A stretch of 64,000 bases of DNA from Bacteroides sp. (GCA_023666705.1 JAMPBO010000006.1:32461-96460), one strand, 5' to 3'; numbered from the stretch's first letter, positions 3,042 through 61,079 are shown. Notes: generated by a model from the sequence alone, not told the origin. Numbers and translations: made by a program.

Positions 3042-4946
3042 ATGAAATTCACAATTCTACCAGATATGGAAGCAAAACGGGAAAAGCTGCAACGCAGGAA
3101 AAAAGAACGGAACAGACGGAAATTTTTCAGACAGGAAAAAAGAAGAAAACAATATCTGGCAAAGAAAGAAACTTTTTGGACAATCTTTCTGAAACGATGG
3201 ATTGTATTTCTTGTAATCAGTGCATTGCTATGTGTAGCGGGAACGATATTTGTTGAAAGAAGTGCACATGCGACAGTCTGTAAGGAATATGAGCTGTGGG
3301 TAAAGGGAATTGTAAACAGTGCAGATTCCGCAATAAAATATATCGAGGACGCCCAGAGTGATTTAAGCGATGAAGAAAAGCTGGATACATTTTGCGTCAG
3401 GGTTCAGGCAGGTATGCTTGCAGGCAATTTCCCGGAGCTTTATGATTTTTCGGCAACACTTTATGATATAACCCCGGATGAGGATGGGATAATACCCCAT
3501 ATACCAGATGTTGTTTGTGACTCCCGTAGGGAAATTATCATGCAGCTTTATTCATATGATGGAACTGGCAATGATATCACATACCATCGGTGCCCGTCGG
3601 AGCTGTTTGGTGATTTGGCAGATGATATTGCAAAGGAAGATGCGGCAGATTTCCGTTATATGAGAATGGGATTTGCAAGGGCGTTCACTTATTTTGATTA
3701 TTTCAGGGATTATTATTATGAGTCAACGAACTCCCATTGGATATGGGGCATGCAGGATTATTATGTAAAAGAAAATGAATTCAGACCAGGTGTTGTTTGG
3801 GTAGGATACACCAATCAGGACAATATAACAATAAGGGATACAGTCCAGTTGTATGATTTGACACCTGCAGATGTAAGCGGCTGGACGCATATAGATGAAG
3901 ATGTGGAGCATGATAAAAGATATGCAGGTGAGTATCCGACCCATACGTATATGCTTTATACAGGCGGAACCAAGGAGGGCAGCAGGGCTGACCAGCAGTC
4001 TCATTATTGCAGGGCGGTGAAGTATAAGGATGGCGAAACAGGTCTGCAATATGGAATTGGATGGAGAAAGCAGGATTATAGAACGGAGCTGGAAATGGAC
4101 GGTGCCAGAATGCCTGATATTAAATGGGAAAGCATGGGCAAAAAATATACGCTTATTACATACGGCTATTATGATTTCTATGCCCGTCATATGGATGTCT
4201 GTATTAAGGTGTATTGCACGGCAAGCGTGCTGGCGACGTTACTGTCATTACTCATGGCAGGCTTAAGATGGCGAAGTGTAAAGATGCAGCTTGAAATGGA
4301 AGCTTACAGAAAGAGTATTACTGATGCGATGGCACATGACCTGAAAAGTCCGTTGATGGCAATTTCAGGCTATGCGGAAAACCTGAAAGCCAATATTCAT
4401 ACTGACAAAAAGGAAGATTATGCCGACAGCATTATAGAAAATGTGTCGTACATGAATGACATCATTGAACATATTTTGGAGCTTTCCAAAACGGAGACAC
4501 GAGGGGTTTCGCTTAATAAAGAAGCACTGGAGATTTCCCTGCTTTTGGATGAAATACTTGATAAGTATGCAATTGCCATTGAAGAAAAGAAGCTTAACGT
4601 AGACATAAATGGAAGCTGCAGCCTCCGTGCTGACAGACAGCTCATTGCACAGGCAATTGACAATCTGATATCAAATGCCGTGAAATTTGCGGTGGATGAA
4701 AGCACAATTCATATGGAATGTGATAAAAACAGCATGATTATCAGCAACAGCTGTAAGGCTGGGGAAAATAAAGATTTGGATATAGCAGATATGCTTAAGC
4801 CTTTTGTAAAGGGCGACTCAAGCAGAAGCAACAAGTCAGGCAGTGGAATTGGACTGACAATTGCGAAAAACATATTTGACCTGCATGGTTACACCATGAA
4901 GCTGACCTTTAAGGAAAATACATTTACCGTAAAGATAAGCTTCTAG
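3042..4946 (+). CDS. Orphan sensor histidine kinase with polybasic N-terminal tail and ~330-aa extracytoplasmic domain
   Basis: RBS AAAGGAGAGG precedes the ATG at 3042, so the ORF-track start at 3024 is probably too early. The first ~45 aa are K/R-rich, followed by two TM segments flanking a large W/Y-rich domain. H-box AMAHDLKSPLMAISGY and HATPase_c (GSGIGLTIAK) are present. No cognate response regulator is adjacent. Confidence 0.8.
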   Translation: MKFTILPDMEAKREKLQRRKKERNRRKFFRQEKRRKQYLAKKETFWTIFLKRWIVFLVISALLCVAGTIFVERSAHATVCKEYELWVKGIVNSADSAIKYIEDAQSDLSDEEKLDTFCVRVQAGMLAGNFPELYDFSATLYDITPDEDGIIPHIPDVVCDSRREIIMQLYSYDGTGNDITYHRCPSELFGDLADDIAKEDAADFRYMRMGFARAFTYFDYFRDYYYESTNSHWIWGMQDYYVKENEFRPGVVWVGYTNQDNITIRDTVQLYDLTPADVSGWTHIDEDVEHDKRYAGEYPTHTYMLYTGGTKEGSRADQQSHYCRAVKYKDGETGLQYGIGWRKQDYRTELEMDGARMPDIKWESMGKKYTLITYGYYDFYARHMDVCIKVYCTASVLATLLSLLMAGLRWRSVKMQLEMEAYRKSITDAMAHDLKSPLMAISGYAENLKANIHTDKKEDYADSIIENVSYMNDIIEHILELSKTETRGVSLNKEALEISLLLDEILDKYAIAIEEKKLNVDINGSCSLRADRQLIAQAIDNLISNAVKFAVDESTIHMECDKNSMIISNSCKAGENKDLDIADMLKPFVKGDSSRSNKSGSGIGLTIAKNIFDLHGYTMKLTFKENTFTVKISF

Positions 4947-6112: not shown

Positions 6113-6305
6113 CGTGAGCAAAATGTACTATTTCAAACTTAGTTGTGCAATATAGACAATATCACAAGCGAGGCATTGTGAAGCCGTCGGTACTTAGCGA
6201 GGTTTTTCGAGCTTAGTACCGTTACGTGCGACACATAGCGAAAGCGTGCCTTGCGGTGATTTGTCTATGTTGTACAACGGAAGTTCATAAAAGTAATGTT
6301 TTGCT
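6113..6305. repeat. Palindromic intergenic repeat family A, copy 1 (arms ~6113-6160 and 6262-6305 with ~100-bp structured insert)
   Basis: Left arm gagcaaaatgtactatttcaaacttagttgtgcaa. Right arm ttgtacaacggaagttcataaaagtaatgttttgct is its imperfect reverse complement. The central segment holds a further hairpin (ggtacttagcgag...cgagcttagtacc). Confidence 0.7.
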
Positions 6306-26996: not shown

Positions 26997-27135
26997 AAAT
27001 TCGCCTGATTGAGATTGACCATAACTTAAATATATAGTAGAATAATTAGTATATTTGATATATTTGTAAAGTGGCAATATGTCACTTTGCACAATGGGAA
27101 GCTATGAATAACTATAGAATAGGGGTGTTTCATTG

Positions 27136-28902
27136 ATGGAAAAATTAAAAAAGATGGGTTGGCAGAGACTGCTGATTATCGTTGCTATCGTTCAGGTTGC
27201 AGTAGGAATTATTTTGGGGGTTGTCTTTCATTCGGTACCGGCAGGTCTGATAACAGGTATTCTGTCAGCGGGAGCGTCAGGTGTTGCCATATTTGCACTT
27301 TGTGGGGATGAGATAGCAGGTCACTCCAAAAGTGATAAGTACAAAAAGCTGTTTATGAATCTCCCAATTGGATTTGCACAGGCAAAGATTATTACGGATT
27401 CTGTTGGAAACAATAGCGGATTTTGCATTGAGGATGCAAACGAGCGGTTTGGGAATTATTTCAACCTTGATGAGTCCGATTACACTGGAAAGATTTTAGG
27501 AGAAAGTAAAATAGATGTCCTCCGGGATATCAATGCGTGGTTTATGGCTTACAATACGTCAGGAACCAAGGAGGGCGACTTCATGGATGTTGAGATTACC
27601 ATGGAGAAGCTTGACCGTGTATTTAATACGGTTATGTACAAGTCAGAGGCAGACTACATAAATATGGTTGTTATTGATATTACCGAGCAGAAGGAAACGG
27701 AGAATAAGCTTTCCGCTGCGATTGAGGATGCCAATGCTGCATATAAGACGCAGGCTGAGTTCCTTGCAAACATGAGCCATGAAATCAGAACCCCTATTAA
27801 TGGTATTCTTGGTATGCTTCAGCTTACGCTTATGGCTGAGGATTTGCAGGCAGATTACAGGGATAACCTTTTAACGGCAAAGAATTGTGCAGATACACTC
27901 CTTCGGTTAATCAATGATATTTTGGATATCAGTAAGCTGGAGGCAGGTAAGTATAACCTTAAGGATGAGATATTCGATATCAAGAGTGCCATTGAAGAAA
28001 CAGTTGCGGCACAGGTTCCGATTGCTACCAATAAGGGACTTGCACTTGATTGTACCTTTGGTAACAACATTCCAAAGCTTGTCAAGGGTGATGGGCAGAG
28101 AATACAACAGATATTGAACTGTCTTTTGTCAAACGCACTCAAGTTTACACCTGAGGGTAATGTAAGAGTTAAGATTGCAGCCATAGATACAGGCTCAGAT
28201 GCAATCAATATCAGAATTGCAGTTGCCGATTCTGGTATCGGTATATCGGAAAAGAACATGGATAAGCTGTTTATCAGATTTTCACAGGTGGATGCTTCTG
28301 ATACAAGAAAATTCGGAGGCTCAGGTCTGGGACTTGTTATTTCCAAGCAGATAGCAGAGCTTATGGGCGGAAACATTACCGTACAGAGCAAGGAAGGCAT
28401 CGGTTCCACCTTTATTGCAGAGATACCGCTCAAGGTAGTGAAGGCGGCTGAGGTTGATGCTGAGAAGGATGAAGAAAAGAAAGAGGATGTTGCATTATTC
28501 TCCATCAATGCACACAGCAAGGCAAGAATTCTTGTGGCAGAGGATGAACCTGTCAACCAGCAGGTTATCGGAAAGCTTCTTGGTATGGCAGGATTTTCTT
28601 ATGATATTGCCGAAAATGGCGAGAAGGCAATTGAGCTCTTTAAGCAGAAGGAATATGACGCAGCCTTATTTGATGTTCAGATGCCTGTTATGGATGGTAT
28701 CACTGCCACACAGGAAATCCGTGAGATAGAGCAGAAGGAGCACAAACGCAGACTTCCGATTATAGCGGTAACGGCAAGAGCCATGTTTGGAGACAAGGAG
28801 CGTATTCTGGAAAATAAGCTGGATGATTATATTGCAAAGCCATACAATCTGAATACAGTTGTTGAGACGCTCAACAAATACATAGACAAGAAAGAAGAAT
28901 AA
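27136..28902 (+). CDS. Hybrid sensor histidine kinase / response regulator (orphan)
   Basis: Two N-terminal TM segments, H-box LANMSHEIRTPINGILGM, HATPase_c (GGSGLGLVISK), and a C-terminal REC domain (ILVAEDEPVNQQV...FDVQMPVMDG...K). Confidence 0.85.
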   Translation: MEKLKKMGWQRLLIIVAIVQVAVGIILGVVFHSVPAGLITGILSAGASGVAIFALCGDEIAGHSKSDKYKKLFMNLPIGFAQAKIITDSVGNNSGFCIEDANERFGNYFNLDESDYTGKILGESKIDVLRDINAWFMAYNTSGTKEGDFMDVEITMEKLDRVFNTVMYKSEADYINMVVIDITEQKETENKLSAAIEDANAAYKTQAEFLANMSHEIRTPINGILGMLQLTLMAEDLQADYRDNLLTAKNCADTLLRLINDILDISKLEAGKYNLKDEIFDIKSAIEETVAAQVPIATNKGLALDCTFGNNIPKLVKGDGQRIQQILNCLLSNALKFTPEGNVRVKIAAIDTGSDAINIRIAVADSGIGISEKNMDKLFIRFSQVDASDTRKFGGSGLGLVISKQIAELMGGNITVQSKEGIGSTFIAEIPLKVVKAAEVDAEKDEEKKEDVALFSINAHSKARILVAEDEPVNQQVIGKLLGMAGFSYDIAENGEKAIELFKQKEYDAALFDVQMPVMDGITATQEIREIEQKEHKRRLPIIAVTARAMFGDKERILENKLDDYIAKPYNLNTVVETLNKYIDKKEE

Positions 28903-28928
28903 AATACTATCAGCAACATAGAATATAT

Positions 28929-29062
28929 GAAGGGGCTGTCACAGTAAGGATTTGAGGCACACTTAAAATTACACTGACAAGCCCTTTTTTATTTTGTATT
29001 TTTATAATTACCGGCTATCTTTAACATATTGATATTTTGTTTTTTCTATTATGTGGGGCACG
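28929..29062 (+). repeat. Repeat family B copy 1 (terminator hairpin + ~75-bp tail); outer left arm of the large palindrome
   Basis: aggggctgtcacagtaaggatttgaggcacacttaaaattacactgacaagccc + T-run, then ttgtatttttataattaccggctatctttaacatattgatattttg... It is near-identical to 39758-39897. Confidence 0.75.
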
Positions 29063-29339
29063 GACTGTTGTCTGAGTGCACAGCCTTATGTTGCCAGTCA
29101 ATATGTGTATTTTGAATTGCAACTTTTAAGACCGCAAGAATACCTCCACATTTGAAATTTGCGATGTTTGATTACATGCTGCTTAGGCGAAACTCGCTTC
29201 GCTCAGACATCGCTACGCAGCATGTTTCATCGCAAATTATCAAATGTGGGTATTCTAAACGGTCTTGTTGTCAAATTCAAAATACACATACTGACTGGCA
29301 ACATGGCTGTGTACGAGTTCAAGGGAGTGCCCCACAAGC
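29063..29339. repeat. Inner ~280-bp imperfect palindrome (symmetry centre ~29200)
   Basis: Left half gttgccagtcaatatgtgtattttgaatt...catgctgcttaggcga. Right half tcgctacgcagcatg...aattcaaaatacacatactgactggcaac. The halves are ~85% reverse-complementary. Confidence 0.7.
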
Positions 29340-29465
29340 CATAATAGAAAAGCAAAATATCTTAATATGCTTAGATAGCACAGGTTATAAAAATACAAAA
29401 TAAAAGAGGGCTTGTCACAGGTAAACAACTATGTGCCTTAAATCCTTACTGTGACAGCCCCTTTT
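29340..29465 (-). repeat. Repeat family B copy 2 (inverted); outer right arm of the large palindrome, terminator for the minus-strand gene
   Basis: The reverse complement reads ggggctgtcacagtaaggatttaaggcaca...gacaagccctcttttattttgtatttttata... Confidence 0.75.
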
Positions 29466-29485
29466 AAAGTTAGTTACAAATCTAA

Positions 29486-31222
29486 TTAAAGTGCATTTAC
29501 CAGCTTCTTAAGAGCTTCGAGTGCCTCATCAGGAAGCTTGTCATAGCCTTCCTTCTTAGTTGCAAAGCCCTCTACGGCATCTACACGATTTTGCATTGCT
29601 GACTTAAGTGCAGCTCTGTATTCAGCATCATCAAGATTTGGCTTGAAGTCAGCAGTCTTGCCTGACCAGTCGTACATAATCTCGATATCCTCAAATGGTC
29701 CCCACTTCTCAAATGTAGCCTTGCCTTCAACGATTGTCTCAAGAATTCCTAGCGTATCAGCAGGCTTACACTTTGTTCCCATGAAGTCACCAGTATTTAC
29801 AATGTAGCAATCTACATTTTTCTCCTCAACAAGCTTCTTGAACTTAACATAATCATTTACAAGTGGATAAGTTCTAAATGGGTTTGCGTAAGGAACGATA
29901 CGAAGTGCATTCATATCAGTACCTGCAGCAACACGCTCAGCAGTTGAAGTCTTAGTTGCAAGTGTAGCACCCATAACAGATGCAAGTGCAGAACCTTTAA
30001 GCTTGATTACAGGTGGAATTGTTGGGTCCTTCATAATCCAGAAAATAGCATTTACAGGAGCATCAATTTTATCTACACGGTTTGGTGACCAAAGCTTTGA
30101 CTTAATGGCACGACCGTTACCGTTTCTGATATCCTCAGTAACAAGCTGGATTTTTCCGTCCTCATCCATAGTTGCGGAACAGTTCTGAACTGTAAGTAAG
30201 TATTTGTTGTCAGGACAACCGGTAGGATAATCGGCAGTCTTATCAAAGTAAGTAGGCTCAAGTGCTATGGAAGCACATGTGTCTGAATTAATAATGAAAG
30301 CATCATCATGAAGTACCTTAATTCCGCCAAACGCATCATACTTTCCGTCATGCTTTGCATGTGTAAGTGTTGACTTACCTGAGCCTGAAAGTCCGTAAAC
30401 AGAAGCAACGAACTTCTTGCCACCTTCGAGTGAGTATTCCTTCTGACCGCCGTGGCAGGAAGCATAACCATTTCTGTTTGCAAGTGCCCATGCCATTGTA
30501 AGAGTTCCTTTTTTGTGCTCTCCAAAATACTTCATACCAAGGATTGCTGCACAGTTCTGGTCTGTGTCGAAGTAGCAGAGTGTAAGTGGATCGCTCAGGC
30601 AGCTGTAATCAACATCAGGACTCTCGGTAGGTGCCCATTGTGGGTCAGAGAAGATATAGATATCAGGCTCCTTGCCATCTGCGATTGGCTTTGAGTTTTT
30701 GTACATCTTAACATACTCGTCTGACATATACTGGAAGTTCAACATCCAGTTATAAAGAAGATTTTCTTCTCCTTCCGGAATAAGAAGATGTGCCTTGGCC
30801 ATGAATTCAGGGTCAAGACCAACGAAACAGGTTGCATGATAGAGCTTCTTAAAGCGTGTTTTGTATATAGCATCCATAACAACCTTATCGAGCTTTGCAG
30901 CGTCTACACCAGGCTCTCCCTTGATACGTCTTGCTGCTGCGTAACGACCTGTAACTGCACCGTCATTAAATAATAAAACCTTTGCATCAGCATCGAGACC
31001 GAACTCCTCACCTCTGTATACAGGCATATCTGTTACGATGGTTCCTGGTGAGTTCTTAGCAAGGTTATAAGCTTCCTTTAAGGTATTTACCTTTACTACA
31101 TTGTTTCCATAGTAAGCTGCTTCAATGATGGCACGTGTGTTGGTTACTGCTTCACCTGTTTTTGGGAAGCCTACCTTACCTGCACCAATTTCGTCAAGTT
31201 TGTAGTTTGCTTTTGTTGACAT
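29486..31222 (-). CDS. pckA: Phosphoenolpyruvate carboxykinase (ATP) family protein
   Basis: Kinase-1a P-loop VYGLSGSGKSTLT. Downstream blocks LHDDAF, IFWIMKDPTIPPVIKL, VMGATLATKTSTAERVAAG and YIVNTGDFMGTK are collinear with E. coli PckA. The N-terminal ~150 aa are divergent. Confidence 0.6.
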   Translation of the reverse strand: MSTKANYKLDEIGAGKVGFPKTGEAVTNTRAIIEAAYYGNNVVKVNTLKEAYNLAKNSPGTIVTDMPVYRGEEFGLDADAKVLLFNDGAVTGRYAAARRIKGEPGVDAAKLDKVVMDAIYKTRFKKLYHATCFVGLDPEFMAKAHLLIPEGEENLLYNWMLNFQYMSDEYVKMYKNSKPIADGKEPDIYIFSDPQWAPTESPDVDYSCLSDPLTLCYFDTDQNCAAILGMKYFGEHKKGTLTMAWALANRNGYASCHGGQKEYSLEGGKKFVASVYGLSGSGKSTLTHAKHDGKYDAFGGIKVLHDDAFIINSDTCASIALEPTYFDKTADYPTGCPDNKYLLTVQNCSATMDEDGKIQLVTEDIRNGNGRAIKSKLWSPNRVDKIDAPVNAIFWIMKDPTIPPVIKLKGSALASVMGATLATKTSTAERVAAGTDMNALRIVPYANPFRTYPLVNDYVKFKKLVEEKNVDCYIVNTGDFMGTKCKPADTLGILETIVEGKATFEKWGPFEDIEIMYDWSGKTADFKPNLDDAEYRAALKSAMQNRVDAVEGFATKKEGYDKLPDEALEALKKLVNAL

Positions 31223-33538: not shown

Positions 33539-35213
33539 ATGAAAGTAAAGAAAGCAATTTGTATGCTTGTCAGCATACTCATGATTGTGATCTCCCCGAT
33601 ACCTTTTGCGTGCATGGGGGGTAGCAAAGGCTGCTGAAAAATTAACGTATCAGGATTGGGAATATGAGATACTCGAAGAAGAGTGTGTGAAGATTACCCG
33701 ATATAATGGAAGTGAAGAAGAGGTTGTTATACCTGAGGAAATTGACGGAAAAAAAGTAACTTTCATAGGAACAGGTGCATTTGGTGGAGAAAGTAGTCTG
33801 ACAGGTGTAGAAGTTCCATCAAGTGTAATAAATATAGAAGATTCTGCATTTAATTGCAATAATGATTTTATAATGTATGGAGAGGCAGATTCGGCAGCAC
33901 AGAAGTATGCAATTGAAAACAATATAAAATTTGTTGTTGGAAGTATGCCGGAATCTTCAGTTTGGGTATATTCAGAGTTAGATGATGGAACTGTGGAGAT
34001 TGTAGAATATCACGGAAGGGGACCGGAAGTTGTTATACCCGAAAAAATTGATGGTAAAACAGTATCGAAGATATTGAGTGATGTATTTGGTGGTGCGAAT
34101 TTGGTAAGTATAAAAATACCATCAGGCGTAACAACCATAGATGAGTACACAGTTGTGAATTGCGACAATTTGGAACGTATAGAAATTCCGGAAAGTGTAA
34201 AACATATAGATCGTTCGGCATTTTATAAATGCAATAAGTTTGTAATATATGGAAAAGAAGGATCTTATGCACATGAATACGCAATTGAAAATAATATAAA
34301 GTTTGTTGCAAACGTGCCTGCGGATCCTATTATTGTCGGAGAAATTTTTATTGACAGGAAGTCAAGGGGTGAATACAAGGTTACAGGGAAATCAACAGTA
34401 TCTTACATGGGGAGAGAATTAACAGCTCCGCTAGTGAAGACCCTTAGAATACCTGATACGGTATTCTATAAGGGAAAAACATTAAAGGTAACAGCAGTAT
34501 ATAAAGGAGCATTTAAAGGAGCATTAGAAGGAACATTAAAGAATTACCATTGCCTAAAAATTTGTCAAGTTATTCTTGGAAAAAATATTACAACAATTGG
34601 AAGTGAAGCTTTTAGTGGGTGTCGTAACCTTCAAATAATAACCTTTAATTCCAACCTTACCAAGATCGGAGACAAGGCATTTTACAATTGTAAAAGGCTT
34701 ACACAGGTAAAGCTAGGCAGTAAGGTAACAACGATAGGCAAGTCAGCATTTGCAGAATGTGAGAAGCTGAATAAGGTAACCCTTGGTTCAGGACTTACCA
34801 CAATCGGAGACAAGGCATTTTACAATTGTAAGGTTCTTACACAGGTAAAGCTAGGCAGTAAGGTGACAACGATAGGCAAGTCAGCATTTGCAGGATGTGA
34901 GAAGCTGAATAAGGTAACCCTTGGTTCAGGACTTACTACAATCGGAGACAGTGCCTTTAACAAGTGTATAGCACTTACCGCTATTACAATTCCGGCAAAG
35001 GTAAAGAAAATAGGAAAGCAGGCGTTCTATGGATGTAAGAAGCTAAAGAGCATAACAATCAGTACAACGAAGCTGAAAAGCTCAAATGTTGGAGCAAATT
35101 CGTTCAAGGGTATATATGCCAAGGCAACGATAAAGGTTCCAAAGAGCAAAAAAGCTGCCTACAAGAAGCTCATAAAGAGCAAGGGTGCAGGCAAGAACGT
35201 GAAATATAAGTAG
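33539..35213 (+). pseudogene. BspA-type leucine-rich-repeat surface protein interrupted by a +1 frameshift in a G6 tract (possible phase-variable gene)
   Basis: RBS AAAAGGAGG precedes ATG at 33539, which encodes the signal peptide MKVKKAICMLVSILMIVISPIPFACMG. The frame then hits TGA at 33635-33637. The long ORF (33606-35213, LRR_5 repeats ITTIGSEAFSGC / LTTIGDKAFYNCK) is in the +1 frame. The junction is GGGGGG at 33616-33621. Removing one G gives ...PFACMGVAKAAEKLTYQD, with a plausible AKA-A signal cleavage site. Confidence 0.6.
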
Positions 35214-35271: not shown

Positions 35272-36141
35272 TTAAGTCATATTGATATATTTCTCAGCTT
35301 CTTCGGGAGATAGGTTATATTTATTGATTAGTACTTCTGTGATTTTGCTGTCTGATAAACCGTTTTCCCGAAGGAGGGCAATCGTAGTTGTAATCGTTTC
35401 AGAAATGCCCTGCTTGCGTCCTTCACTACGTCCGATGTCGATGCCTTGTTCTAAGCCATCCTCTACACCTTCTTCATATTTTTCTCGATAATGCATTTCA
35501 AGCGTCATATAATCAATCCTCCACTTCTCATTATTTTTCACGGACTTAACTGCAGTTTCTAGCTTCATGGTAAAATCATCCGATGCTGCCTGACCGTCTA
35601 TGTAATTAAGTAACCGTTTCATTTCAGGTGTTATATCGTCCATCGTACCCTTGGTATTTAATATAATCTTTGTTGTCTCATCGCCAAGACTGATTTCGTA
35701 ATCCTGTAAGCATCTGTTTTCAAATGTGTAAATATGTCGTCCCTTGCCGAATAAATCAAAGGTACAGACAAAAATGACAAAGCTCCGTTTTAGTTCTTTG
35801 TAGTCTCCGCCCTTTTCCAGTACATTCAGGTCTATCATTCCCTGATAATATCTTGACCGTTTTGGCAGATTTTTATTTATGGATACCTGCATTTCTATAT
35901 TATAAACGGTATTCTTGTCATCTTCAACATAAACATCCAAACGGACAGACTTTGCATCTGCTGTAATGTTTATGGTTTCCTGTGTTCTCGGATATTCTAT
36001 GTCGGAGATGCTTATACCAAGTATTGTTTCCAGAAATGGTTTGCAATACTTGGGGTTCCGCATAATAACCCCAAACATGAAATCATCCTTCAGCTCCAGT
36101 TTCTCAAAGCTTTTGACAGTTCTCGTTTCTTTTTTGTTCAT
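35272..36141 (-). CDS. Rpn-family recombination-promoting nuclease / putative transposase (PD-(D/E)xK, YhgA-like)
   Basis: LKDDFMFGVIMRNP, RLDVYVEDDKNTVYNIEMQ and LPKRSRYYQGMIDLNVLEKG are conserved Rpn/YhgA-like blocks. Acidic C-terminal tail. Confidence 0.75.
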   Translation of the reverse strand: MNKKETRTVKSFEKLELKDDFMFGVIMRNPKYCKPFLETILGISISDIEYPRTQETINITADAKSVRLDVYVEDDKNTVYNIEMQVSINKNLPKRSRYYQGMIDLNVLEKGGDYKELKRSFVIFVCTFDLFGKGRHIYTFENRCLQDYEISLGDETTKIILNTKGTMDDITPEMKRLLNYIDGQAASDDFTMKLETAVKSVKNNEKWRIDYMTLEMHYREKYEEGVEDGLEQGIDIGRSEGRKQGISETITTTIALLRENGLSDSKITEVLINKYNLSPEEAEKYINMT

Positions 36142-36612
36142 TCAATTTCCTCCCTTGTCCTTTGGACATGATCCATGGTTTTGCCGAACCCTTGCGGAAT
36201 ATACATCGTGTAAAACCAATTTGTTGCCAGTAATAATCAATCACGTCAGGCAGAGAAGAGTATTGAACAAATATGCTTTTCGGTGAGTCCTGCTTAAGCC
36301 AACCTGTCAAATACAGTTTGTTTCTTGCTTGAAATCTTTGTTACAGCACTCCGCTGCCTATTTTTGTGAAATAAAGCATCGAAGTTATTTGATAACAGAT
36401 TCGTTAGGAATGGCTGTAAGCCACAAATAAAAATAGAATACAATGCTCTCAAAACATATTACCATGTGCGTATGAAAAATACAATCTTTTTTTACGGTTG
36501 CTTAAAAATAATCTGTCTAATAAGGTAGAAATTATAATTTATTTGGCGGACGATTATGGACAGCCTTAAGAGTTTATTATGGTATCATACATCGTATACA
36601 ATATAATTTAGC

Positions 36613-36684
36613 GATGAGCAAAACGCATTATTTCCAAAACATGGTTGTACAATGAATGTTCGTAAAAGTAGTGTTTTGCTCATG
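36613..36684. repeat. Palindromic intergenic repeat family A, copy 3 (compact, arms adjacent)
   Basis: gagcaaaacgcattatttccaaaacatggttgtacaa | tgaa | tgttcgtaaaagtagtgttttgctc. The arms are reverse complements of each other and match copies 1 and 2. Confidence 0.7.
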
Positions 36685-36713
36685 GTTATATAATTTCGAA
36701 AAGGGGGATGTAC

Positions 36714-39755: not shown

Positions 39756-39757
39756 AA

Positions 39758-39897
39758 AAAGAGGGCTGTCACAGTAAGGATTTAAGGCACACTTAAAATT
39801 ACACTGACAAGCCCTCTTTTATTTTGTATTTTTATAGTTACCGACTATCTTTAGCATATTGATATTTTGTCTTTTCTGTTATGTGCGACAGCCCCGC
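39758..39897 (+). repeat. Repeat family B copy 3 (solo, MITE-like, ~10-bp imperfect terminal inverted repeats); its hairpin is the proS terminator
   Basis: gagggctgtcacagtaaggatttaaggcacacttaaaattacactgacaagccctc + TTTTATTTTG, then a tail ending ...gtgcgacagcccc. Start GGGCTGTCAC and end GCGACAGCCC are inverted. Confidence 0.7.
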
Positions 39898-39900
39898 TTT

Positions 39901-40089
39901 TTAGTTCTCCATCATCTCTTCCTTTTGTTTTGCCGTATCCTTTAGGACTTCGTCGTATCCTGTCAGTGCTGAAAATGGGGAAAACTGGGCGGCACGGTCA
40001 TATATGGACATGTGCGGTCTGGTTTTCGACTGATGGTGAGGCAAATTGATGATGTCGTCATATTTGTGTATGTCAGTTTGGTTGGTCAT
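39901..40089 (-). CDS. Small protein co-transcribed after the Y-family polymerase; possible YolD-like (UmuD-analogue) protein
   Basis: 62 aa (MTNQTDIHKYDDIINLPHHQSKTRPHMSIYDRAAQFSPFSALTGYDEVLKD...). Position and size match yolD/yqzH-type partners of UmuC-like genes in Firmicutes. The family assignment is by context and weak motif recall only. Confidence 0.35.
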   Translation of the reverse strand: MTNQTDIHKYDDIINLPHHQSKTRPHMSIYDRAAQFSPFSALTGYDEVLKDTAKQKEEMMEN

Positions 40090-40176: not shown

Positions 40177-41706
40177 TTACGCTTTATGTCCGCCAATCTG
40201 TGCATTCCGGTCCTTGGCAGTTGCACCCTCCGTGTAGCTTGTCCCTTTTAAAATGGCATTTTTGCCATACTTTTTCTTGATATTAAGCAGAGCTTCCTGC
40301 AAATGGCGTTCTTTTTCAAGCCCGGCTTCCTCCTGTGCCCGCTTTTGTTCTATCATTTCATAGTCTGTAAATAAATCAAGCTGCTCATAAACCTCCTGTT
40401 TGGTTACGGATGTTTCATCAACTACTTTATTTGCTGTTAATGTAATTCTTCTGATAAGCAGGTTTTTGTCAACAATGCGGTCGTAAAGTCTGGTGGCGGC
40501 ATCAAGAAGCATGGAGGAGGATGAGGTTTGTCTTGTAAGATTTTCCGTTCCATGTGCATGCTTAGGGATGCTGCGTCCGTATCGGTCCATTGTAATTTCA
40601 CCTTTGTATTGTTTCCTGCGTTCCGGGTCGGAAAGATTTTCCCGGTCATAGCCAATCGTCAGTACAAGCTGGTTTGTTACCAGTTTTTTGTCCAATAAGT
40701 CAAGTGCAAGGGCATCTGTCATTTCACGGACTACAATTTTTGCTTTCTCAAATGTATATGGACACTGAAGAACCTGTCCCGAACATATGCTGTTGCTTTC
40801 AGGCTTATAGGACTTGATATCAGAAATTTGGCATGGCTCCCATCCCCACGCATGGTCGATAAGAAGCTCTGCATTAATTCCAAACATTTTATAAAGCAAA
40901 TCCTCGTTGTAATAATCGTTGGCACCGCCGAGGGAACATTTTGCTACATCACCCATAGTATAAAGACCTGCTTCCTCAAGCTTTTTTGCATAGCCTCTGC
41001 CGATTCGCCAAAAGTCCGTTAATGGTCTGTGTCCCCACAAAAGTCTGCGGTAGGACATTTCGTCAAGCTCGGCAATACGGACGCCGTCCTTGTCCGCATC
41101 CATATGCTTTGCTACAATATCCATTGCAATTTTACATAAATAGAGATTGCTGCCTATCCCTGCAGTTGCAGTTATGCCTGTTGTTTTTAAGACGTCCCGG
41201 ATCATGGTCATGGCAAGCTCATGTGCCGTCATTTGATAAGTTTTAAGATAATGGGTTGAGTCGATAAAAACCTCATCAACGGAATAAACATGGATGTCTT
41301 CAGGTGCAATATATTTCAGGTATACATTATAAATCTGTGAGCTTACTTCCATGTATTTTGCCATGCGGGGACTTGCAATGATATAGTCAATTGCACAGTC
41401 AGGAGAGGTACGAAGTACAGTCGCATCGCTGGATTTGCCTGTAAACTGACGATTTGGTGCCTGTTGTTTTCGTTTTGCATTTGCGGCATTTACCCTTTGA
41501 ATGACTTCAAACAAACGTGGACGTCCGGGAATTCCATAGCTTTTCAGGGACGGGGAAACGGCAAGGCAAATTGTTTTTTCCGTGCGGCTTTCGTCTGCGA
41601 CTACAAGATTGGTGGTCATTGGATTTAATCCGCGGCTCATACATTCTACAGAAGCGTAGAATGACTTTAAATCTATGGCAATGTAGCGTTGGTTTTCGTT
41701 TGACAT
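40177..41706 (-). CDS. Y-family (UmuC/DinB-like) translesion DNA polymerase
   Basis: RBS GAGGAG precedes the Met at 41706. YIAIDLKSFYASVE is the Y-family palm start. ~510 aa with a C-terminal extension. Confidence 0.8.
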   Translation of the reverse strand: MSNENQRYIAIDLKSFYASVECMSRGLNPMTTNLVVADESRTEKTICLAVSPSLKSYGIPGRPRLFEVIQRVNAANAKRKQQAPNRQFTGKSSDATVLRTSPDCAIDYIIASPRMAKYMEVSSQIYNVYLKYIAPEDIHVYSVDEVFIDSTHYLKTYQMTAHELAMTMIRDVLKTTGITATAGIGSNLYLCKIAMDIVAKHMDADKDGVRIAELDEMSYRRLLWGHRPLTDFWRIGRGYAKKLEEAGLYTMGDVAKCSLGGANDYYNEDLLYKMFGINAELLIDHAWGWEPCQISDIKSYKPESNSICSGQVLQCPYTFEKAKIVVREMTDALALDLLDKKLVTNQLVLTIGYDRENLSDPERRKQYKGEITMDRYGRSIPKHAHGTENLTRQTSSSSMLLDAATRLYDRIVDKNLLIRRITLTANKVVDETSVTKQEVYEQLDLFTDYEMIEQKRAQEEAGLEKERHLQEALLNIKKKYGKNAILKGTSYTEGATAKDRNAQIGGHKA

Positions 41707-41857
41707 GTGTGGCTCCTCACTACCTGATGATTTACTGCTTGTTACCATATATATTGTGTACTGTTTCGTAAAATATGTCAAGAAATAGAACAAACTTTCA
41801 TAATTGCAGAAAAAGACAGCTTTTGTTGGTTGACAGGGAAGATAAATATAAAAATTT

Positions 41858-60930: not shown

Positions 60931-60978
60931 ATGAGGCTGTCGCCTTAGGGGGGAACCCTTAAGGCGGCAGCCTTTTAT
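60931..60978. terminator. Bidirectional intrinsic terminator
   Basis: GAGGCTGTCGCCTTAGGG-gggaac-CCTTAAGGCGGCAGCC followed by TTTTATTT. An A-run precedes it. Confidence 0.65.
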
Positions 60979-60983
60979 TTCTT

Positions 60984-61011
60984 TATAGGAAATTCCTTTG
61001 AATTTCCTATA
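60984..61011. promoter_or_regulatory. Perfect 12-bp inverted repeat TATAGGAAATTC-cttt-GAATTTCCTATA
   Basis: Read directly. Lies between the terminator and the ppiB stop. The function is unknown; it could be a second hairpin terminator or a protein site. Confidence 0.4.
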
Positions 61012-61079
61012 GGCACGCTCCTTACGGAGCCTGCTAAGATTCGAACTACAGCGTCATAGACGCTTTGTTCTGGCTATGA

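Follow-up and report, generated by a model that had tools for sequence, protein, structure and literature searches.

A long palindromic repeat family with terminator-like arms follows core genes in Lachnospiraceae

Results

A nested palindrome lies between convergent hybrid kinase and pckA genes

The stretch of DNA analysed here, which we call the window, is 64,000 nucleotides long. In it, a hybrid histidine kinase gene (27133-28902, plus strand; HisKA, HATPase_c and Response_reg domains) converges on a gene encoding an ATP-dependent PEP carboxykinase (PEPCK, pckA; 29486-31222, minus strand). Between the end of the kinase ORF at 28902 and that of the PEPCK ORF at 29486 is a gap of 583 bp (28903-29485), the longest intergenic gap of the window. 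This gap contains a 534-bp palindromic element (28930-29463, no strand assigned), which we classify as a full-length member of a repeat family, family A, on the basis of its self-complementarity, its fold z-scores and the existence of copies at 91-94% identity. Its GC content is 36.7%, compared with 41.7% for the window. The initial annotation of this DNA had described a long, nested, imperfect palindrome across the gap, and both the coordinates and the anatomy held up: when 28930-29463 was aligned to its own reverse complement, 245 positions were paired, 212 of them as Watson-Crick pairs, the remainder comprising 13 transition mismatches and 20 transversions, while 44 nt were left unaligned.

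The element consists of two outer arms and an inner palindrome. The left, or L-type, arm (28929-29060, plus strand; nhmmer with an arm profile) carries an A-run, a terminal repeat, a local hairpin, a T-rich tract and an AT-rich tail. The right, or R-type, arm (29340-29465, minus strand; nhmmer with the arm profile and an alignment of the arms) is about 80% complementary to the L arm and has a conserved loop sequence of its own; this type of arm is kept in L009, L026, L024, L027 and L020 (L numbers denote the loci that we compared). Between the arms lies the inner palindrome (29063-29339, no strand assigned), centred near 29196 and delimited by an inverted-repeat search and by folding. Seven inverted-repeat pairs are nested in the element. 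The terminal inverted repeat (28930-28961 / 29432-29463) is 32 nt long and 97% complementary, a degree of complementarity also reached by a 33-nt pair at 28975-29007 / 29385-29417 and a 31-nt pair at 29088-29118 / 29274-29304. The dyad that had been cited as an example of nesting was also recovered, at 29174-29186 / 29213-29225; it forms the centre of the inner palindrome and encloses a non-complementary spacer of about 26 nt.

Folded as RNA, the element reaches a minimum free energy of -297.7 kcal/mol, against -129 +/- 6 kcal/mol in shuffled sequences (z = -26.9; 0 of 100 shuffles were as good). The z-scores for the minus-strand RNA and for single-stranded DNA are -24.3 and -30.8, respectively. 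Each outer arm also folds alone, into a hairpin of about 55-60 nt with a long U-rich tract, directed towards its flanking gene. The predicted intrinsic terminator of the hybrid kinase gene (28929-29004, plus strand; -25.6 kcal/mol, z = -5.1) comprises a hairpin at 28929-28988 followed by TTTTTTATTTTGTATTTTTAT, and that of the PEPCK gene (29385-29466, minus strand; -26.3 kcal/mol, z = -3.6) a hairpin at 29401-29466 followed by a U-rich tract. At the level of folding, therefore, both arms agree with the earlier claim of an inward-pointing terminator hairpin in each, with hairpin and U-tract present on the two sides. A simple consensus terminator scanner called no terminator in the element, because the loops of the arm terminators are longer than 8 nt.

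These folds suggest that the arms are Rho-independent terminator modules, with a GC-rich hairpin and a U-tract placed 3' of stop codons. By the same predictions, the element holds the only recognisable terminators of both genes at the kinase/pckA site. Read on the plus strand, the DNA of the PEPCK-side terminator again gives a hairpin followed by UUUU (-24.3 kcal/mol), which would serve as a second terminator for read-through. As each arm has a hairpin and a U-run on both strands, each direction of transcription would meet two terminators in series.

The element is unlikely to encode a protein. Its internal ORFs (83, 61 and 57 aa) all start with TTG, and the palindrome causes the same peptide strings, for example VASQYVYFE and KFKIHILTGN, to recur in mirrored form among them. 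In other copies these ORFs are interrupted by 1-nt indels; they are not conserved, and they match one spurious database protein only. We thus rejected a coding role, regarding the ORFs as mirror by-products of the palindrome, in agreement with the initial annotation, which had considered nothing coding to be plausible here and the ORFs to be mirror images of each other.

Family A recurs at the 3' ends of unrelated genes

A scan of one genome per species with a 19-nt terminal seed gave nine loci, and a census of family members was obtained by a profile search over 284 kb of loci. The whole unit of about 530 bp recurs at 91-94% identity at L027 6999-7529, L024 5504-6027 (the same as L002 2283-2806), L026 4995-5527 and L020 2-355. 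The BLAST comparison proposed in the initial annotation was thus positive: the unit is multi-copy, with full copies at unrelated loci and a third copy of the arm in the window.

In the species of the window, full-unit copies stand after glmS and beside a thioesterase gene, and in two other MAGs they stand after metG. The copy after metG in L002, a Lachnospiraceae MAG, comprises the whole unit of about 525 bp at 92.6% identity, in flanks unlike those of the window. That at L027, found via metG homologues, has the glmS stop on one side and a convergent gene on the other (93.8% identity). The L020 copy, reached via a spurious ORF inside the element, comes from the same genome as L027 and L010, the latter being a near-identical relative of the window. 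Taken together, the window and the JAMPCS contigs give at least three full copies and one solo arm for this species. The JAMPFU MAG has five seed matches, three of them at contig ends. The family A sample amounts to about eight independent copies, all from MAGs, in which the assembly of repeats can create chimeric variants.

Full-length members were assembled through at four sites: pckA (window and L010), glmS (L027), and the metG site both in L024/L002 and in L026. Other full-length members are cut at contig ends (L020; L007/L009). Solo arms occur in the window and in L008, an arm cut at a contig end in L004, and members reduced to the hairpin in L001, L006 and L025. The latter are 47-59 bp long (48-59 bp in L001 and L006) and share the same terminal stem; the inner palindrome is missing from solo-arm and hairpin derivatives alike. 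Two further candidates, L003 and L005, have only about 22 nt in common with the family and lack a partner repeat or transposase, and were rejected as chance or very remote matches.

The solo arm of the window (39757-39897, plus strand) takes up the space separating the stop codons of proS (39755) and of a convergent 62-aa ORF (39901). Over the 123 bp of 39763-39885 it shows 94% identity to the L arm, and it joins ...ATTATGTG to TGTGCGACAGCCCC, which is the right terminus of the full element. The 62-aa ORF (39901-40089, minus strand) lies upstream of a gene for a Y-family polymerase (IMS domains; 40177-41793, minus strand). This two-gene unit converges on proS, and the solo arm is the sole spacer between the unit and proS.

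Every copy adjoins a stop codon, starting 1-27 nt past it, and has an A-run at one side and a T-run at the other. The neighbouring genes are of the ordinary, housekeeping kind and include pckA, the hybrid kinase gene, glmS, metG and proS, as well as HAD, Bax1-I, thioesterase and sigma factor genes. Both window copies and that of L027 lie between convergent genes, and in L020 the assembled side of the copy borders on the stop codon of a gene on the minus strand. At the ends of eight copies, with boundary shifts of +/-4 allowed, we found no direct repeat (4 bp or longer) of the kind that a target-site duplication would leave. No transposase adjoins any copy, nor did we see an excision or insertion junction. 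The 284 kb of loci contained no autonomous IS with the termini of the element, and none of the 43 window ORFs scanned had a Y1_Tnp (RAYT) domain.

The sole transposase-like gene of the window, not adjacent to the element, is a PDDEXK_2 gene (PD-(D/E)XK 'transposase' family; 35272-36141, minus strand). It adjoins the second-longest gap of the window (36142-36707, 566 bp); we found no link between this gene or gap and the repeat family. The window also has a 138-bp tandem repeat (34656-34968, 92% identity between copies) inside a gene for a BspA-type leucine-rich-repeat protein.

Outside these genomes the searches were negative. Blastn against phage and plasmid collections gave no match to the element, and viral contigs scanned with the terminal seed gave 0 matches. 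In JGI metagenomes, a degenerate seed retrieved five loci, none of which matched the element by blastn (E <= 1e-3); L017 and L018 have only the 19-mer in common with it.

The distribution of the copies bears on two other explanations. According to one, the palindrome is a locus-specific structure that evolved in place, either as a pair of terminators or as a cruciform serving recombination or replication. This would fit the strong symmetry of the palindrome and its place between two convergent genes, but the same 530-bp sequence is present at no fewer than four unrelated loci in at least three species, and relatives of the PEPCK gene (91-95% amino acid identity) have other downstream neighbours and short, ordinary, unrelated terminators. 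In these relatives the region is not syntenic downstream, hence it offers no empty site. We also sought a GC-skew switch across the window and found none, the skew being positive throughout. As the skew has no switch and the element is multi-copy, a role in replication is unsupported. The non-complementary centre, together with the 44 unaligned nt in the arms, would be unfavourable for cruciform extrusion. With copies at the 3' ends of genes, the earlier suggestion of a recombination or replication site, or of a cruciform, finds no support, and an origin in place is most improbable.

The other explanation is an assembly artefact, for example a chimeric inverted duplication. All data come from MAGs, and contigs of several assemblies (L004, L007, L009, L011 and L020) stop inside the element. 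Against this, the unit with its diverged L and R arms was assembled in independent projects (the NALB MAGs JAMPCS and JAMPHN, the Mgla MAG, and ENA ERZ27267569), and a divergence of about 20% between the arms is unlike an inverted-duplication artefact. We find this explanation scarcely credible.

An allelic series occupies the metG-glmS slot

We define the metG-glmS slot as the interval from the metG stop to the glmS promoter/ribozyme, and give MetRS identities relative to the L002 protein. L024 and L002 (99%) have the full element with the L arm beside metG, and L026 (96%) has it in the opposite orientation. In L025 (97%) the slot holds a 47-bp hairpin, which corresponds to the first local hairpin of an arm. 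The flanks of L025 and L026 are the same, namely ...AAGTTAAAAAAATAAAGA to the left of the slot's content and TTTTTT(T)CTTTACTTACATAT... to its right. L021, L022, L023 and L031 (97%) carry an unrelated palindrome of about 310 bp, palindrome B, and in L027, from the species of the window (89%), the spacer measures 194 bp and contains an unrelated terminator of the ordinary kind. The terminator slot thus appears to be exchanged among unrelated palindromic elements.

The element contains internal direct repeats: GACAAGCCCTCTTTT, which closes the first hairpin, and GACAGCCCCTCTTTT, at the far terminus. A deletion between them would yield the hairpin-only allele. None of the loci compared offered a clean empty site with the same flanks, so the hairpin-only alleles could be either remnants or precursors.

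Other features of these regions are worth recording. Palindrome B (L021 5490-5795; also L022, L023, and L031 about 4490-4790) has four cross-pairing units of about 30 nt; the L022 and L023 contigs end at its centre, and a 36-bp piece of it resembles window 6213-6248 (86% identity). A glmS ribozyme was found 5' of glmS in two relatives (L021 5871-6071 and L024 6106-6284) and was not detected in the species of the window (L027 4987-5180), where the metG-glmS spacer is only the 194 bp mentioned above. A further repeat, repeat C, consists of three consecutive small hairpins over about 97 bp and lies between convergent genes at window 60974-61070. It recurs at L031 5098-5194 (83.5% identity), where it is inserted into the glmS leader of a different species. 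In the window it follows a terminator hairpin (60933-60975), and the outer stem of that hairpin, GAGGCTGTCGC, is similar to the family A terminus.

Compensatory changes maintain the palindrome, and a mirrored box varies

We counted pairs in an alignment of eight copies, taking the long-range palindrome as the structure. The long-range pairs were counted explicitly since RNAalifold, given an alignment that included truncated copies, returned a 'clover' fold and not the long hairpin. Standard pairs account for 88% of the alignment cells. Thirteen pairs are altered on both sides, a count that none of 500 shuffles attained (5.5 +/- 1.5) and that compares with 0-2 in slid controls; five of these compensated pairs lie in the terminal stem, six in the box region described below and two elsewhere. 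Between the window and L002 alone, 5 compensated pairs occur among 31 substitutions, where about 0.3 would be estimated by chance. The G.T and A.C mismatches are balanced (7 and 6), so neither strand is favoured. The asymmetric loops and bulges of the L and R arms are kept in all copies, which indicates that wholesale arm-to-arm conversion is not frequent.

Variation is concentrated in two boxes that are mirror partners. The left box (29091-29101, plus strand) is made up of a dinucleotide (29091-29092) and the heptamer CAGTCAA (29095-29101), and the right box (29291-29301, plus strand) contains the partner heptamer CTGACTG (29291-29297). The most variable 9-nt stretches of the element, 29093-29101 and 29293-29301, have mean pairwise differences of 0.35 and 0.28, compared with 0.065 overall; the mirrored 7-nt box varies about five times as much as the remainder of the element, and its left side co-varies with its right. 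The heptamer is unlike in each independent copy, nearly all changes being transitions (CAGTCAA, CAACCAG, YAACTGG, CAAACGG, CAAYCGR). With the right box given as its reverse complement, the left and right heptamers read CAGTCAA and CAGTCAG in the window (pckA), CAACCAG and CAATCGG in L027, TAACTGG and CAACTGG in L024, and CAAACGG and CAA-CGG in L026; in L020 the left box is not assembled and the right reads CAACCGA. An inversion of the box between copies, considered by eye, was rejected, as transitions explain the differences better.

The initial annotation had named a structured sRNA locus among its candidates, and the family might accordingly be a set of sRNA genes in which inward promoters at about 29113-29141 (plus strand) and 29280-29252 (minus strand) drive two convergent RNAs of about 300 nt. 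Each RNA would have the central hairpin at its 5' end, the single-stranded variable box as seed and the arm hairpin as terminator. A consensus scan did reveal a promoter-like site, TTGAAT-17-TAGAAT (29252-29280, minus strand, 9 of 12 matches), which points inward and which we treat as a lead, and reading by eye added a weaker mirror site, TTGAAT-18-AAGAAT (29113-29141, plus strand). The unit is bracketed by predicted terminators, co-variation upholds its structure, and the box would fall 3' of the putative starts and be unpaired.

Several results argue against such a locus. The promoter-like sites are weak matches and number 6 in the region, against 3.1 +/- 1.9 in shuffles; TTGAAT-17-TAGAAT is kept in other copies, as is nearly everything else. 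Rfam gave no relevant match even at E <= 10 over 28600-29800. At the gathering score, scans of the window and of three loci likewise gave nothing relevant, and the element copies of L024 and L027 had no match. The balance of G.T and A.C mismatches favours no single strand, solo arms and hairpins without the inner part persist at similar sites, and at one site an unrelated palindrome replaces the element. With no Rfam match and the inner part missing from deletion derivatives, the proposal gained no support, and we regard sRNA genes as an unlikely explanation of the family.

Over 13,737 bp, only 8 positions distinguish the window from L010, and all of them lie within 29263-29352, in the right half of the palindrome. 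Three of the eight differences fall in the right variable box, and three of the variants are otherwise common only to the L020 copy of L010's own genome. This cluster reflects either ectopic exchange between copies or the mixing of reads during MAG assembly.

Exchange of this kind could in principle account for the family with no transposition at all. Terminator hairpins would be enlarged, flipped and homogenised by ectopic gene conversion or template switching via the terminal repeats, long palindromes growing from, and collapsing to, simple terminators. The hairpin of L025 and the full element of L026 between identical flanks would agree with such a process, as would both orientations at one site, the partial match of the cluster of eight differences to another copy in that genome, and the lack of a target-site duplication. 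The box changes, mirrored and nearly all transitions, are also what mismatch correction in a hairpin would produce. However, conversion leaves unaccounted for the first arrival of the element at pckA, glmS, proS and metG, given that the pckA and metG sites of relatives have unrelated terminators, and the L/R asymmetries kept in all copies imply that arm-to-arm conversion is neither frequent nor long-tract. We therefore consider conversion alone possible, though unlikely.

Discussion

The repetition of the element, its positions, its structure, the co-variation of its pairs and the allelic series lead us to propose that the palindrome is probably a copy of a non-coding foldback interspersed repeat family whose arms act as inward Rho-independent terminators. 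Within the collections searched, family A is confined to a few related Lachnospiraceae ('Clostridium sp.') MAGs. A literature search on the terminal sequence and on related elements in Lachnospiraceae found none. We describe the family as previously undescribed, and as an unusually long, fully palindromic form of a known class, that of terminator-like hairpin repeats.

Within this class, the pneumococcal SPRITE repeats offer a close parallel. They are shorter than 200 bp, have a single 18-bp stem, and have neither an established target-site duplication nor a matching IS (PMC3049150). Each arm of family A resembles a SPRITE in being AT-rich, with AAAA/TTTT ends and a long duplex that leads into an extended U-rich tract, and in lying near the 3' ends of coding sequences and between convergent genes, sites at which SPRITE is strongly enriched (PMC3049150). 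Both are also small interspersed repeats of Firmicutes with no established duplication or IS partner (PMC3049150). In contrast, and as far as a comparison by description goes, family A joins two diverged, inverted arms through a 277-bp inner palindrome into a unit of about 530 bp, in another host clade.

REPINs are doublets of REP sequences that form hairpins and are mobilised by RAYT transposases (Bertels & Rainey 2011, PMC3116915). They measure about 70-110 bp, are found mainly in Proteobacteria, number from tens to hundreds in a genome and come with a cognate RAYT gene (PMC3116915). Like family A, they have two inverted conserved ends around a spacer and are predicted to fold, as ssDNA or mRNA, into a long hairpin that shows compensatory changes; the alternative 'clover' fold with a local hairpin per end, the extragenic location, the singlet remnants and the lack of a classical duplication are likewise common to both (PMC3116915). 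Family A differs in being about five times longer (about 530 bp, with arms of about 130 bp), and no RAYT/Y1 gene was seen in the window.

The Correia elements of Neisseria (100-200 bp, 26-bp TIRs, TA duplication) and ERIC (about 127 bp) are all proteobacterial; Correia and ERIC/IRU elements are co-transcribed with their neighbours and act on termination, RNase processing and mRNA stability (PMC10969869, PMC3184786). They share with family A the nature of imperfect palindromic intergenic repeats (PMC10969869, PMC3184786), and the in-place inversion of Correia elements parallels the two orientations at the metG site. Family A, however, has no duplication and is palindromic over the whole 530 bp. 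Classical MITEs, derived from DDE-type IS, are likewise small, non-coding, multi-copy and intergenic, with terminal inverted repeats; here, in contrast, the palindrome is continuous throughout and no parent IS was identified, and because there is no target-site duplication at the eight copies we do not consider family A a classical MITE.

Among the three earlier readings, which had been offered without a choice between them, that of a head-to-head pair of MITE-like elements came closest. The arm of about 130 bp does occur alone (39757-39897 in the window; L004 and L008), but the recurring unit is the whole palindrome with distinct L and R arms, and not two independent insertions, and it lacks a duplication.

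Our model suggests the following life cycle. The full unit of about 530 bp is composed of the L-type arm, the inner palindrome and the R-type arm, and in each arm a local GC-rich hairpin and a long T-rich tract accompany a terminal inverted repeat of 30 nt. Copies take the 'terminator slot' right after stop codons, usually between convergent genes, where the two arms would terminate transcription inward. Spread between sites may follow a single-strand hairpin route that leaves no target-site duplication, as in IS200/RAYT, or alternatively gene conversion and ectopic recombination in which the terminal repeats serve as anchors; either orientation could result at one site. Decay would proceed by deletion between the internal direct repeats GACAAGCCCTCTTTT and GACAGCCCCTCTTTT, giving rise to solo arms and to terminator-like hairpins of 47-59 bp. 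Both the terminator activity of the arms and the mode of spread are thus proposed from sequence and predicted folds.

A model of a purely selfish terminator does not account for the mirrored hypervariable box. Its heptamer changes from copy to copy while the two arms keep it complementary, and the box could be a programmable determinant of specificity, either a guide that pairs with DNA of the target or cleavage site in single-strand hairpin transposition or the seed of paired sRNAs from inward promoters, which we consider very unlikely. If it were so, these foldback elements would be hairpin replicators of a new class, guided by RNA or DNA, and would not be passive terminator repeats.

In practical terms, family A elements disrupt MAG assemblies and may yield clustered pseudo-SNPs. 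If the foldback-repeat interpretation is correct, some gut Lachnospiraceae would draw the terminators of core metabolic genes (pckA, glmS, metG and proS) from a spreading palindromic repeat, and one intergenic slot would alternate between the long palindrome in either orientation, the hairpin left over from it and a palindrome unrelated to it. The family would then provide a natural series for the birth, exchange and loss of intrinsic terminators, for the tolerance and upkeep of imperfect palindromes of about 500 bp in bacteria, and for the movement of duplication-free hairpin repeats outside Proteobacteria.
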